Origin: Desulfosudaceae bacterium
Lineage (GTDB): Bacteria; Desulfobacterota; Desulfobacteria; Desulfobacterales; Desulfosudaceae
Direction of reading: 5' to 3'
DNA length: 64,000 bases
Assembly: GCA_963674745.2 (NCBI GenBank)
Contig: CAXXDV010000003.1
Location: 32,001 to 96,000 of the forward strand
Shown: one piece after another, positions 547-10,151 of the stretch
How the letters are laid out: every line of letters begins with the position of its first letter
Numbering within the stretch: position 1 is the first letter of the stretch
Program-made: the position numbers and the translations under genes
The notes under the pieces: model-generated
Told to the model about the DNA's origin: nothing
The model's input: only the letters and a program-made list of their open reading frames with translations
The model's database searches: none

Positions 547-996
547 ATGGCCTTGAGCCTTTCCGAAAGAATGGACTTGTTCCAAAGATTTAAGGATAAG
601 GACATTGATAAGTTGCTCAAATTATCAGTAACTTTTAAGGCCAACAAAAATTATGATAAGGCCCACCTTACTGATTTGCTGATAAAAATTAAAACCCAGG
701 ATATTGATGGCTTAAAACGGCTAACCAAAGAATTATCACGTTCTGGAGCTTTGATGGAATCAGTTTATGCTGATTCTCTGTTACAAGAAAAATTATCGAG
801 AAAAACAGAAGAAAGAAAACAAGCGAAAAAACAGAAAAAGATGGCCAAGCGCGAGAAGAAAGAAGAACCCGAAGAAGATAAGTCTATACCGCCATTTGGG
901 CTAACAGATGAGGTTTATGAGGCTATGTCGAAAAGAATTGCACTTAACTCACAAAGACATAAGGACAGGATAAAAGGAGCCTCAGAGACAGAATAA
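547..996 (+). CDS. Cassette 2: hypothetical Lys/Glu-rich soluble protein
   Basis: ORF fills the cassette; stop lies just before the attC. Confidence 0.75.
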   Translation: MALSLSERMDLFQRFKDKDIDKLLKLSVTFKANKNYDKAHLTDLLIKIKTQDIDGLKRLTKELSRSGALMESVYADSLLQEKLSRKTEERKQAKKQKKMAKREKKEEPEEDKSIPPFGLTDEVYEAMSKRIALNSQRHKDRIKGASETE

Positions 997-997
997 A

Positions 998-1121
998 ATA
1001 TAACAACGCCACTCACACAGACTCGCAGGGGCGCCCTGCCTTAGTTTTTGCATAGTGTGGTGTTGAACTAACATTTAAGAAGTCCGCAAACCCTGCTCGC
1101 CGGTGGTGGCGGACGTTATAT
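998..1121 (+). repeat. attC, family B
   Basis: ATATAACAACGCCAC...GTGGCGGACGTTATAT. Confidence 0.92.
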
Positions 1122-1178
1122 GCTTTAATTGATTTTCTTTAAAGAAATTCTGCTCTTGTGGATATATAATGACAAAGT

Positions 1179-1436
1179 ATGATTGAGACTAAATCAGACT
1201 TTCGGGAACAAAAGGGATTTAAATCCGACGATCTTGTGTGCCATTGCTTTGGGTACACGAAAAAAGATATTGAATTTGACCTGAAGGAAAATGGCAAATC
1301 CCTTATCCTTGAGAGAATAGCTCTTGAGAAAAAAGCTGGCGGATGTAATTGCGTTTCGAAAAACCCATGTGGCGAATGATGTTTAGCTGATGTCCGCCAG
1401 GTGGTGGAATCATTTAAAAAGAAAAACAGCATATAA
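1179..1436 (+). CDS. Cassette 3: BFD/CopZ-like [2Fe-2S]-type protein, probable selenoprotein (UGA at 1377-1379), 85 aa
   Basis: VCHCF...CNCVSKNPCGE-UGA-CLADV matches the NPxGxCC motif. The frame continues to a TAA inside the attC box, and a SECIS-like hairpin follows the UGA. Confidence 0.8.
1388..1412 (+). promoter_or_regulatory. Bacterial SECIS-like hairpin
   Basis: TGAT-(G)-TCCGCC[AGGT]GGTGGA-ATCA; the loop starts 19 nt after the UGA and has G at loop position 2. Confidence 0.7.
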
Positions 1437-1554
1437 CAACACGTTGGTGAGGGACCGCAAGGGGCGGTCGGTTTTGGCACTTATCAAATAATTCAAAAAC
1501 GTGTCTTCGGCGGCGGCCCGTTTCCCTTGCGGCCCCACACCGTGGACGTTAGGA
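1431..1554 (+). repeat. attC, family C (single copy here)
   Basis: ATATAAC...CCGCAAGGG...CCCTTGCGG...GTTAGGA palindrome. Confidence 0.88.
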
Positions 1555-1566
1555 ATATAATATTTT

Positions 1567-2031
1567 ATGAAGCTACCCGACATGTTGATGGCTTTAATCC
1601 TTATTGCGCTTGGCTCTTTCCTTTTTATGGTTTCATATCATCATCTAAATAATTCAAAAGCCACAGAAAAATGGGTAAAACATAAAGGAGTTGTTTTAAA
1701 TATTGATTACGAGCGTACCTCAATGGGACGTAGAATTAGCAATAGTCCTGTTGTTAAATACAAGTACGAAGTAGATGGAAAAACTTTTCGATCAAATGAC
1801 AGGGAGTTCCCGGATGGGCTAGAAGATGAGGATATATTTGGGCTATATAAAAAGGATAATATAATTGCAATCTACTATAATCCGAATAAACATGCTGAAT
1901 CCTCGCTATTTATTGGCACTAATACAATGAATTATATTTTTCTGTGTTTTTCAGCAATTATTGCTATTGTCGGATTGTTGTTTTTATTTTTTATAGCCAT
2001 TAAAGCAAAAATACAGAGTATGAATTCCTAA
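1567..2031 (+). CDS. Cassette 4: DUF3592-like membrane protein
   Basis: TM, then W-x3-GVV...PVVKYKYEVDGK...IYYNP, then TM. Confidence 0.75.
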   Translation: MKLPDMLMALILIALGSFLFMVSYHHLNNSKATEKWVKHKGVVLNIDYERTSMGRRISNSPVVKYKYEVDGKTFRSNDREFPDGLEDEDIFGLYKKDNIIAIYYNPNKHAESSLFIGTNTMNYIFLCFSAIIAIVGLLFLFFIAIKAKIQSMNS

Positions 2032-2592: not shown

Positions 2593-2949
2593 TTGAAAAT
2601 TATTTTTATGGGCATCCACCTCCTTACCCGATATCGACGAAAACTATATTTTGTTCTGGGTTTTTTTCTTATTGTTTATGCACTTAATATTTTTGTTTTT
2701 GCAAAAAATCTCAGAGAATTTACATATATGTCATTTTGGTTGTTCATGTTCCCTGGTTATATTACAGGATATCTGTTACTGCTGGTCGCTTTAGAATTTA
2801 CATTGAGAGGAAAAAGAGGAAAATATTTACGAACGGTCGAGAATATTTTTTTAGGAGTATTTTTTTGTGCATTAACAATAATCTTTTTACTCTCTGCATG
2901 GCACTTCGGTGGCGTAGGATATGTTTGGAATATAATAATGCCGGTCTAA
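2593..2949 (+). CDS. Cassette 6: hypothetical membrane protein (about 3 TM; alternative ATG at 2608)
   Basis: Stop TAA overlaps the GTCTAAC box. Confidence 0.75.
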   Translation: MKIIFMGIHLLTRYRRKLYFVLGFFLIVYALNIFVFAKNLREFTYMSFWLFMFPGYITGYLLLLVALEFTLRGKRGKYLRTVENIFLGVFFCALTIIFLLSAWHFGGVGYVWNIIMPV

Positions 2950-3761: not shown

Positions 3762-4142
3762 ATGTTCAAAAAAAGATTACTAAACATTCAATGTCCAGAT
3801 TGTAGTGGAGAATTCGATCTGAACTCCGAAGCGATGAAGCAAAGAAAAAACCGTCGTAATTTTTTTTATTTATCTGAAATTGAATGTCCATTATGCAATT
3901 CTATTTTAATTCCAAATATAAATGCCAGAAGAAGAGCCATTTTCATGTTATCACTTTTTGTTCTTGCTTTTATATGGATTATTTTGGGAGTTATTTCCGA
4001 TCTGACAAGCTTTGGGATCAATTATAATTTATATAAATACGTATCAATTTCTCTTTTGGGTTTATTTGGTTTTGCTACCATATATATTAGATTTAAATAT
4101 TCTACATATGAACTAATAAGTAGAAAGAATAATGGCATATAA
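3762..4142 (+). CDS. Cassette 8: zinc-ribbon (CPDC...CPLC) plus 2 TM protein
   Basis: Two CxxC pairs and hydrophobic helices; stop lies in the attC box. Confidence 0.75.
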   Translation: MFKKRLLNIQCPDCSGEFDLNSEAMKQRKNRRNFFYLSEIECPLCNSILIPNINARRRAIFMLSLFVLAFIWIILGVISDLTSFGINYNLYKYVSISLLGLFGFATIYIRFKYSTYELISRKNNGI

Positions 4143-9074: not shown

Positions 9075-10151
9075 TCAGGCAGCCTTTTTTACGTAGTAAT
9101 GATTAAGCAGTCCGCCGAGAAGAGGCTGACAGCGGATGTCTTCGGGATCGGCGGGTTTGTCGGGAAAATCAAACCCGTCTGGTATGCGATTGTTTATACC
9201 CTGGTGAGGTCGTTGTTGATTGTGATGCGTTTCAATGCATTTAAGAACATGCCGAAAATGCCTTTCCCCCAAAGGGATGATATCGTTCAGAGTCTCTCTG
9301 GCTTCCCGGACAAATCGTTCGGCATAGGCATTACACATAGGCGTTTTGGGTGGTGTCTTGACGATTTTGATGCCGTCGGTTTTGATGATTTGATCAAACG
9401 GTATAAAACTTGAATCCCGATCATGAATAATATACCTGCAGGGCGCCTGGTCATCGGCAAGTTTCATGGACAGGTTTCTGGCCTGCTGTTTCATCCAGGC
9501 AGCATTCGGGTGAGGCGTGCAGCCGGCGATATGCACGCTACGGGTGCCAAGGTGAATGAAAAACAGCACGTAGAACGTAACCAAGCCTCTTGTTGTCCAG
9601 ACTTCCTCGGTAAAAAAGTCGGTGGCCCAGATAACGTTTAAATGAGACTTAATGAAGGTTGCCCAGGGCAGGCCTTTGCGTTGAGGTGAGGGCGGCAGGC
9701 CGTGCTTTTTTAAGATGTTGGCCACAGTAGTGGGTGAAAGGCAGTGGCCCAGTTTCATCAGCTCACCGGCGATACGGATATAGCCAATATTGTTTTCATG
9801 GGCGATCTTCAAGGCCAGGATTTCCGTCTGTTCCGGCGTCTTTGGCCGCCCTGGTTTTTTACGGGTATTGTCATACGTCCATTTGGATTTTTTCATGCGC
9901 CGGTGCCAGGCCAGCAAAGTCTCGGGTTTTACAATAGAGATGATCTGGGCCAGCCGATCCTTTATGGGCATACCAACGCTGACCAGAATCCGGCGTTCCG
10001 CGTCTGTCAATGGAACGCGCTTGCCGATTTTGCTGCGCAGGATTTTATTCTCCTGCCGCAGGTAAGCATTCTCAAGAGCGATGCGGGATTTGAACAATCG
10101 GCCGATAGCCGCTAAAAACTGTGTTGCCTGAAGCGATAACTTGCCTTCCAT
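9075..10151 (-). CDS. Integrase-core (rve) DDE transposase
   Basis: WATDFF, IHDRDS, NAYAERFV and RPHQG motifs. Confidence 0.9.
   Translation of the reverse strand: MEGKLSLQATQFLAAIGRLFKSRIALENAYLRQENKILRSKIGKRVPLTDAERRILVSVGMPIKDRLAQIISIVKPETLLAWHRRMKKSKWTYDNTRKKPGRPKTPEQTEILALKIAHENNIGYIRIAGELMKLGHCLSPTTVANILKKHGLPPSPQRKGLPWATFIKSHLNVIWATDFFTEEVWTTRGLVTFYVLFFIHLGTRSVHIAGCTPHPNAAWMKQQARNLSMKLADDQAPCRYIIHDRDSSFIPFDQIIKTDGIKIVKTPPKTPMCNAYAERFVREARETLNDIIPLGERHFRHVLKCIETHHNQQRPHQGINNRIPDGFDFPDKPADPEDIRCQPLLGGLLNHYYVKKAA

Follow-up and report, generated by a model that had tools for sequence, protein, structure and literature searches.

The stretch analyzed here, which we call the window, is 64,000 nucleotides (nt) of contig CAXXDV010000003.1 of a Desulfosudaceae bacterium (assembly GCA_963674745.2, positions 32,001 to 96,000 of the forward strand). 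Near its start lies a short open reading frame (ORF) in an integron array, and the question that it raises is whether the TGA that closes it is a stop codon or encodes selenocysteine (Sec). The ORF (1179..1379, plus strand) encodes 66 residues and is terminated by TGA at 1377-1379. If the TGA is read as Sec, the product has 85 residues, MIETKSDFREQKGFKSDDLVCHCFGYTKKDIEFDLKENGKSLILERIALEKKAGGCNCVSKNPCGE-U-CLADVRQVVESFKKKNSI, passing through KNPCGE-U-CLADVRQVV and continuing for 18 more codons up to a TAA at 1434-1436. This TAA falls within the R'' box, ATATAAC (1431-1437), of the attC that belongs to the cassette. Coordinates and translation therefore agree with the original prediction, made from the letters alone, that a TGA stands where a cysteine is expected and is followed by 18 codons up to a TAA in an attC box. 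A stop codon within the R'' box, which had been proposed for other cassettes too, is seen for the array ORFs 1567..2031, 2593..2949 and 3762..4142, among others. Over 1100-1600, Logan contigs from two runs, both of the same sample, match the window letter for letter, and thus have neither TGT nor TGC in place of the TGA. The sample is probably the source of the assembly and hence not independent; the identity of the contigs excludes an assembly slip. Judged from sequence comparison, the interval 1116-1548 is very probably a promoterless integron cassette carrying the gene of an 85-residue cytoplasmic selenoprotein, a form 1 (GxUC) member of the CopZ family that is a putative redox partner or chaperone for metals or metalloids.

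When 401 genomes of the phylum were searched in six frames, 45 matches with E ≤ 1.4e-12 were obtained besides that of the window itself. An in-frame TGA is present in 43 of these, and there is none in the other two. Thirty loci were fetched from this search, counting the window's own (29 were matched by a first pattern and one, L038, by a looser pattern), and the TGA column is identical in all 30. The consensus around it is NP-x-G-x-U-C-[LIVM]-x-[DE]-V. The column is also identical in all seven loci found in metagenomes and in six of seven from a genome collection, where L078 may duplicate the record of L073 and the seventh locus, L081, matches residues 17-40 only. When the nucleotide sequences are aligned from the TGA onward, codon positions 1 and 2 are invariant while position 3 is variable. 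Conservation with this codon periodicity indicates that translation proceeds beyond the TGA.

The protein databases lead to the same position. A word-indexed search found only three relatives (66, 65 and 55 residues), all ending in ...NPSGK or ...SPSGK, and these nearest database proteins look like gene calls truncated exactly at the TGA. With HMMER, 975 proteins were matched at E ≤ 0.001, of which 101 were at E ≤ 1e-10. We aligned 31 proteins chosen from 150 of the 975; 24 extend past query residue 74, and seven end at residue 65. Among the 24 full-length relatives the Sec column contains cysteine in 14, tryptophan in seven and arginine in three. We infer that the tryptophan arises where a pipeline has translated TGA under a code that reads it as Trp. 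The Cys forms have Cys-Cys at the U-C position (e.g. NPSGRCCL and NPSGHCCL), so that the NPxGxCC motif attributed to the family in the original prediction is real, and the alignment confirms the pairing of Cys with UGA that it had proposed for residue 67. From these comparisons codon 67 is almost certainly selenocysteine. The alternative is an ordinary stop, in which case the cassette would code for a 66-residue protein or be a decayed gene, and the 18 codons that follow would be open by chance or because of the attC. Gene callers do indeed terminate the ORF at the TGA. Yet homologues outside integrons keep the TGA followed by C-L-x-D-V-R/H-x-V with codon-periodic variation, and the Cys forms continue straight through this column.

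The RNA downstream of the UGA bears on the same choice. A hairpin, UGAU-G-UCCGCC-AGGU-GGUGGA-AUCA (1388-1412), has a loop that begins 19 nt past the UGA. It folds with −11.6 kcal/mol (z = −3.04, equalled by 3 of 200 shuffles), and the 60-nt stretch starting at the UGA with −13.6 kcal/mol (z = −2.09, 10 of 200 shuffles). The model of the bacterial selenocysteine insertion sequence (SECIS) in PMC13188914 has a loop of 3-9 nt, an upper stem of 4-16 bp, a minimum free energy of −7.5 kcal/mol or lower, and a G in the first two loop positions placed 16-37 nt from the UGA. The 4-nt AGGU loop, 6-bp upper stem, 19-nt spacing and folding energy of our hairpin lie within all four constraints. Covariation was analyzed in 45-nt stretches from 29 homologues, taking as the core the five pairs formed by columns 17-21 with 28-32. 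Standard pairing is found in 145 of 145 cells for these pairs. The 20-29 pair is GU in 14 sequences, AU in eight and GC in seven; 18-31 is CG in 25, UA in three and UG in one; and 19-30 is CG in 28 and AU in one. The covariation score is above that of all 500 shuffles and every slid register, and sliding the partner by 1-3 columns lowers the pairing from 87.7% to 28.6%-61.1%. In the loop U26 never varies, and G25 is kept in at least 90% of the sequences. The proposal that an AGGU-loop hairpin 19 nt after the UGA fits the bacterial SECIS thus holds both for the model constraints and for covariation, and the latter is hard to reconcile with an ordinary stop. An Rfam search of 1100-1600 (E ≤ 10) gave four matches at chance level and no SECIS family, which is the other point in favor of a simple stop codon. 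The 5' arm of the hairpin, TGATGTCCGCC (1388-1398, minus strand), resembles the reverse complement of the end of the family-A attC, TAACGTCCGCC, with two mismatches; since non-integron homologues have the same arm, we take this likeness to be coincidental.

Sec could only be inserted by a host equipped for it, and selA, selB, selC and selD, which the original prediction had singled out to be looked for in the genome, are all found above curated cut-offs. The scores are 607.9 bits for selA (cut-off 267.9), 369.8 for selB (242.25), 368.6 for selD (125) and 75.1 for tRNA-Sec (47), which ARAGORN calls as tRNA-SeC with anticodon tca. By these models the Sec machinery of the host is complete. Moreover selD has one in-frame TGA, at the ...VAGAG-U-ASK... 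site, so the host uses UGA for Sec in a gene of its own. Set against this and the comparative evidence, an ordinary stop at codon 67 is hardly credible.

The protein has conserved cysteines at positions 21, 23, 56, 58 and 68, with Sec predicted at 67. In an alignment of 32 sequences C58 never varies, and at least 90% of them retain C21, C23 and C56. By similarity the protein is predicted to have a BFD-like [2Fe-2S] fold. The Pfam model of the BFD-like [2Fe-2S] domain (Fer2_BFD) matches with E = 0.0035 and 18.1 bits (cut-off 26). The best NCBIfam model is NF047645 (CopZ_Nterm_CC), entitled 'putative iron-sulfur cluster-binding metallochaperone', which matches over profile positions 70-137 with E = 1.8e-13 and 50.9 bits (cut-off 100). 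A profile of the family matches the N-terminal domain of Archaeoglobus fulgidus CopZ (2hu9_A) with E = 5e-4. An AlphaFold2 model has a mean pLDDT (predicted local distance difference test) of 85.7, and in Foldseek 2hu9 and Bfd rank first with E = 0.7-1.1. A search of the PDB with the single sequence gave rows with E of about 0.3-0.6, mostly beta-2-microglobulin, that we judged to be noise; 2hu9 had E = 0.52 there. The structural scores are modest, and are consistent with the sequence evidence rather than proof of it.

Comparison with characterized relatives places the protein more closely. On alignment with the A. fulgidus CopZ N-terminal domain (2HU9), Cys21, 23 and 58 correspond to Cys75, 77 and 109, and Sec67-Cys68 to Cys118-Cys119, within a shared pattern C-x-C ... 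C ... NP-x-G-x-C-C. It differs from Bfd (4E6K, 6E6Q; PF04324) in having about 10 extra residues ahead of the last helix and additional conserved Cys, and in carrying a Sec-Cys pair where Bfd has its second Cys pair; nor is there a bacterioferritin context. The Csac_0668 family (form 2, CU; NF045877) belongs to the same superfamily and has the same adjacent pair of residues, but there Sec is the second of the pair whereas it is the first in the cassette protein. The NF045877 model, whose cut-off is 190 bits, gives only 18.4, and the gene is therefore of form 1 and not form 2. A '(2Fe-2S)-binding protein (CopZ family) form 1, GxUC' is listed by Zhang and colleagues in PMC9312934 and PMC13188914, the latter, a 2026 review, giving cd10141, motif GxUC and one Sec. 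The motif is present here as G65-E66-U67-C68, and the single Sec, the small domain predicted to be CopZ-like/BFD-like and the occurrence in deltaproteobacteria-type anaerobes are shared with form 1. The family itself is thus not new, as had been suspected. The difference is that our gene is in an integron cassette, while the words integron, plasmid and mobile are absent from the text of both reviews. The main text of the GOS paper that PMC13188914 cites for the family mentions neither CopZ nor 2Fe-2S, copper chaperone or BFD.

The cassette copy has a peculiarity just ahead of the Sec codon. In NP-C-G-E-U-C (codons 64-66 at 1368-1376), Cys64 is shared by none of the 42 other homologue loci (29 from the phylum, seven from metagenomes and six from the genome collection, some of them probably duplicates); at this position they carry K, S, R, A, T or L. 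Glu66, likewise peculiar to this copy, replaces the usual Arg or Lys, and Cys64 adds a C-x-x-U spacing beside the U-C pair.

We now consider the carrier of the gene. An integron integrase gene, intI (C3:27977-28915, minus strand), scores 414.7 bits with TIGR02249 (cut-off 265) and has no internal stops; it lies about 3.1 kb ahead of the start of the window and 4.2 kb from the selenoprotein gene. Between C3:29806 and C3:38087 there are 17 attC-like sites, all on the plus strand, of which that of the selenoprotein gene is the eighth. These were called by BLAST with the array's 15 own sites plus a crude folding filter. The repeats are co-oriented and about 120 nt long, with an AAC-type R'' box at the start and GTTRRRY at the end. 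The cassette extends from T1116, which follows the first G of the GTTATAT in the attC ahead of it, to the G1548 that begins GTTAGGA, and is bounded by G|TT on both sides. It starts with TTATAT, which is complementary to the ATATAAC of its own R'' box, as one would expect of a circularizing cassette. The bottom strand of its attC, which we assign to family C, folds with the ends paired at −23.6 kcal/mol (z = −2.18, 5 of 200 shuffles). The cassette units have a median length of 558 bp and mostly a single ORF. All inter-attC DNA of the genome has a G + C content of 38.5%, compared with about 50% for the genome. At 39.1% the selenoprotein ORF thus resembles the resident cassette pool in composition.

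The original prediction that the gene is carried as an integron cassette is therefore upheld by an integrase above its cut-off and by the position of the gene in the eighth of 17 co-oriented units. A skeptic might say that the unit is just a gene between species-specific palindromic repeats that resemble attC and is not a mobile cassette, given that it is known from its anatomy and that the sites were called with the array's own sequences and a crude filter. We consider this highly unlikely. An intact integrase stands at the head of the array, the repeats have the length, orientation and boxes of attC sites, the units are short and mostly carry one ORF, the 5' end of the cassette complements its own R'' box, and the same type of attC is joined to other flanking DNA in a sludge metagenome.

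What the protein might do is suggested by its relatives. Among 29 homologue loci, an ArsP_1 permease gene adjoins the homologue in six (L028, L031, L040, L044, L045 and L050), accompanied by an LMWPc/ArsC-like gene, TauE, ArsR or a CDF transporter. The closest NCBIfam models to these permeases are SaoE and SO_0444 Cu/Zn efflux, with scores below their cut-offs, while the regulator scores above that of an ArsR/SmtB model. As four of these six belong to a single family (f97), they amount to about three independent cases. Metal_resist genes are near the homologue in three of the 29 loci. Because homologues adjoin these various genes, or in one case are fused to an HMA-like domain, we propose a role as redox partner or chaperone in metal(loid) handling, for which we regard the chances as about evenly balanced.

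The fusion is in L024 (G169:C55, about 1297-1779), where the homologue domain follows in frame a domain assigned as HMA-like by motif reading. Both Cys of its GMT-C-xx-C motif are encoded by TGA (GMT-U-MS-U), so the frame contains three in-frame TGAs; PMC13188914 lists a family of UxxU metal-binding selenoproteins. In L073 a gene of the C-GCAxxG-C-C family of (seleno)proteins (2607-2954; TIGR01909, 69.7 bits against a cut-off of 47.4) ends about 45 nt upstream of the homologue, which hints at a redox pairing of the two.

It is also conceivable that the protein is a general Bfd-type electron carrier, acting in iron mobilization or with a partner oxidoreductase, and that the ars-like neighbors are incidental. 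Its best structural matches are Bfd, and most homologue neighborhoods are heterogeneous (MFS, DUF302, Usp, photolyase and others). But Bfd has neither the conserved Cys56 nor the Sec-Cys pair, and ArsR, an ArsC-like reductase, a SaoE/SO_0444-like permease and a CDF transporter recur in three families. With one relative fused to an HMA-like domain and the nearest NCBIfam model named as a metallochaperone, a general carrier appears to us unlikely, and we favor the role in metal(loid) handling over it.

A selenoprotein of this kind would be made by the standard bacterial mechanism. The ribosome would meet the UGA at 1377-1379 while host SelB, carrying Sec-tRNA-Sec, is bound to the hairpin at 1388-1412; Sec would be inserted and 18 more codons translated before termination at the TAA inside the R'' box. 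If Sec were not decoded the product would be a 66-residue fragment, deprived of the Sec-Cys pair and the last helix. Placed at or beside the cluster, the Sec-Cys pair might be a ligand, or form a redox-active or metal-binding selenol-thiol site, and the protein could thus act as a small redox partner or chaperone for metal(loid) handling. Transcription entering from upstream in the array would drive expression, and IntI could move the cassette.

A number of observations weigh against this interpretation. Both the Fer2_BFD and NF047645 scores are below their cut-offs, and since Cys56, Cys58, Sec67 and Cys68 are all candidates, any of them may be a ligand of the cluster. The hairpin shares its sequence with the conserved codons D-V-R/H-Q/R-V-V/A-E/D (here DVRQVVE), and its conservation must therefore be in part protein-driven; the combinations of amino acids seen nevertheless preserve the hairpin pair, His occurring with Val and Ala only with Arg. 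The link to metals and metalloids comes from other genomes, where four of six permease loci are in family f97 and most neighborhoods are unrelated, and the cassette gene has no functional neighbors in its own genome. The mobility of the cassette is deduced from anatomy alone. Lastly, a simple scan found no sigma-70-like promoter on the plus strand of 900-1700, which includes the cassette leader, and the stretch was not found in RNA runs, with one run having a 0.03 share of its words. Expression would accordingly rely on transcription from upstream.

The last two observations, and the seven cassettes with their attC hairpins that separate the gene from the integrase end of the array, are what might be expected if this were a genuine selenoprotein gene that is silent cargo, made only after relocation by IntI or on stress-induced read-through. 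However, the frame, the SECIS and all the conserved Cys are intact, the query has no match in this genome other than the cassette copy, and the promoter scan was limited to sites of the sigma-70 type. Silent carriage is thus a possibility to be kept in mind, if a less probable one than an expressed gene.

Both the protein family and integrons are well known; what is unusual is a selenoprotein gene as integron cargo. Full-text searches of the accessible literature found no report of a Sec-encoding integron cassette. Candidates among the papers matched deal with selenocysteine lyase, an enzyme that is no selenoprotein itself. A recoded gene can travel in this way because the bacterial SECIS lies within the coding region, and the 433-bp cassette is self-contained apart from the Sec machinery of the host. 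Its function is predicted to depend on the Sec competence of the host and on the supply of selenium, and it is reasonable to infer that the cassette is host-restricted and selenium-conditional. The interest of the locus lies in this combination of recoding with cassette mobility, and we see it as an instructive example and not as a new kind of system. Since the three nearest database proteins are cut at the TGA, catalogues of cassettes based on ordinary ORFs will under-report such genes or give them the wrong size. More speculatively, the integron pools of Sec-using anaerobes may regularly carry UGA-recoded genes with a built-in SECIS that ORF callers overlook, with exchange partly partitioned by the Sec trait, and the Cys64 copy (C-x-x-U-C), the only family member of its host, could be a cassette-adapted metal(loid)-binding variant. 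We put this forward tentatively; were it true, such cargo would be useful only in hosts that are Sec-competent and supplied with selenium. The features of the locus are collected in Table 1.

Table 1. Positions in the window of the cassette, its predicted selenoprotein gene and the flanking recombination sites
Feature	Position	Strand	Remarks
attC of preceding cassette, family A	995..1121	+	R' box GTTATAT 1115-1121; cassette boundary G1115/T1116
Probable integron cassette	1116..1548	+	433 bp: 63-nt leader, single ORF and own attC
Predicted CopZ-N-terminal/BFD-like [2Fe-2S] selenoprotein gene	1179..1436	+	85 codons; motif G-E-U-C
Sec codon TGA (almost certain), residue 67	1377..1379	+	homologue alignment; contigs concur
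Predicted SECIS hairpin within coding region	1388..1412	+	lower stem 1388-1391/1409-1412, bulged G1392
Predicted SECIS hairpin, upper part	upper stem 1393-1398/1403-1408; loop AGGU 1399-1402	+	
attC of selenoprotein cassette, family C	1431..1554	+	R'' ATATAAC 1431-1437; R' GTTAGGA 1548-1554

No cassette-borne homologue was found among about 40 homologue loci elsewhere. These were scanned with a crude attC finder calibrated on this array, where it recovers 11 of the 15 known sites and none on the opposite strand. Next to the gene it detected no attC in L022-L050, with a match rate about that of control loci L001-L020, nor in L068-L074, nor on the plus strand of L075-L077 and L079 (L078, L080 and L081 were outside the scan). 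Three candidates were rejected. The finder match in L076 (867-931) shares sequence with the 3' end of the read-through frame and was read as a terminator-like hairpin; an inverted repeat of 75 nt that follows the L073 gene was dropped as the C-GCAxxG-C-C gene abuts upstream with no attC; and a GTTATAT upstream of the L071 gene has no repeat ahead of it. Among 111 ORFs of at least 100 residues from 29 homologue loci, Pfam identified no integrase.

The original prediction also stated that the cassette has the only family-C attC, and took this as a hint of a different donor. Within this array the site is indeed unique. Genome-wide this does not hold, as 10 further copies with 78-91% identity occur in other arrays, and some of these are close to the genome's two other integrases. 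This type of attC is therefore a resident one that gives no donor signal, and the suggestion of a different donor is not supported. The closest relatives of the gene are 67% identical over residues 1-77 (L070) and 64% identical (L075), and neither a near-identical relative nor a donor was found in the phylum, metagenome and genome-collection searches. A contig from a sludge metagenome has the family-C attC (window 1434-1550) with two differences over 114 nt and different flanking DNA, while further metagenome contigs align over 1371-1409 alone, the part in which relatives have their UGA and SECIS.

The cassette pool of this genome is an unusually large reservoir. BLAST with the array's 15 attC sites gave 244 attC-like sites in 16 clusters, and 11 of the sites are best matched by family C. 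The arrays include ones of 88, 45, 25, 24, 21 and 17 sites (examples are C1:1480177-1531326, C3:1821282-1853060, C1:2100026-2116420, C1:2266567-2289172 and C3:2330341-2347583), there are three integron integrases above the TIGR02249 cut-off, and the inter-attC DNA amounts to about 136 kb. We scanned the 244 intervals for other Sec cassettes, seeking ORFs of 25 codons or more that close with a TGA and have at least six open codons after it, together with a hairpin within the SECIS constraints. There were 12 candidates, comprising the selenoprotein gene, six copies of one repeated ORF and five ORFs that lack a Cys context. By this rough filter the selenoprotein gene would be the only convincing Sec cassette of the 244.

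The ORF with six copies, ...APFRPSPG-TGA-VLRVYF..., is found in six unusually long intervals (C1:1482491-1486224, C1:2101227-2102523, C3:1847212-1857188), and is probably an insertion element repeated within the arrays. Just past the end of the array in the window, a 358-residue ORF (9075-10151, minus strand) is, from reading of its translation, a candidate transposase of the integrase-core type.

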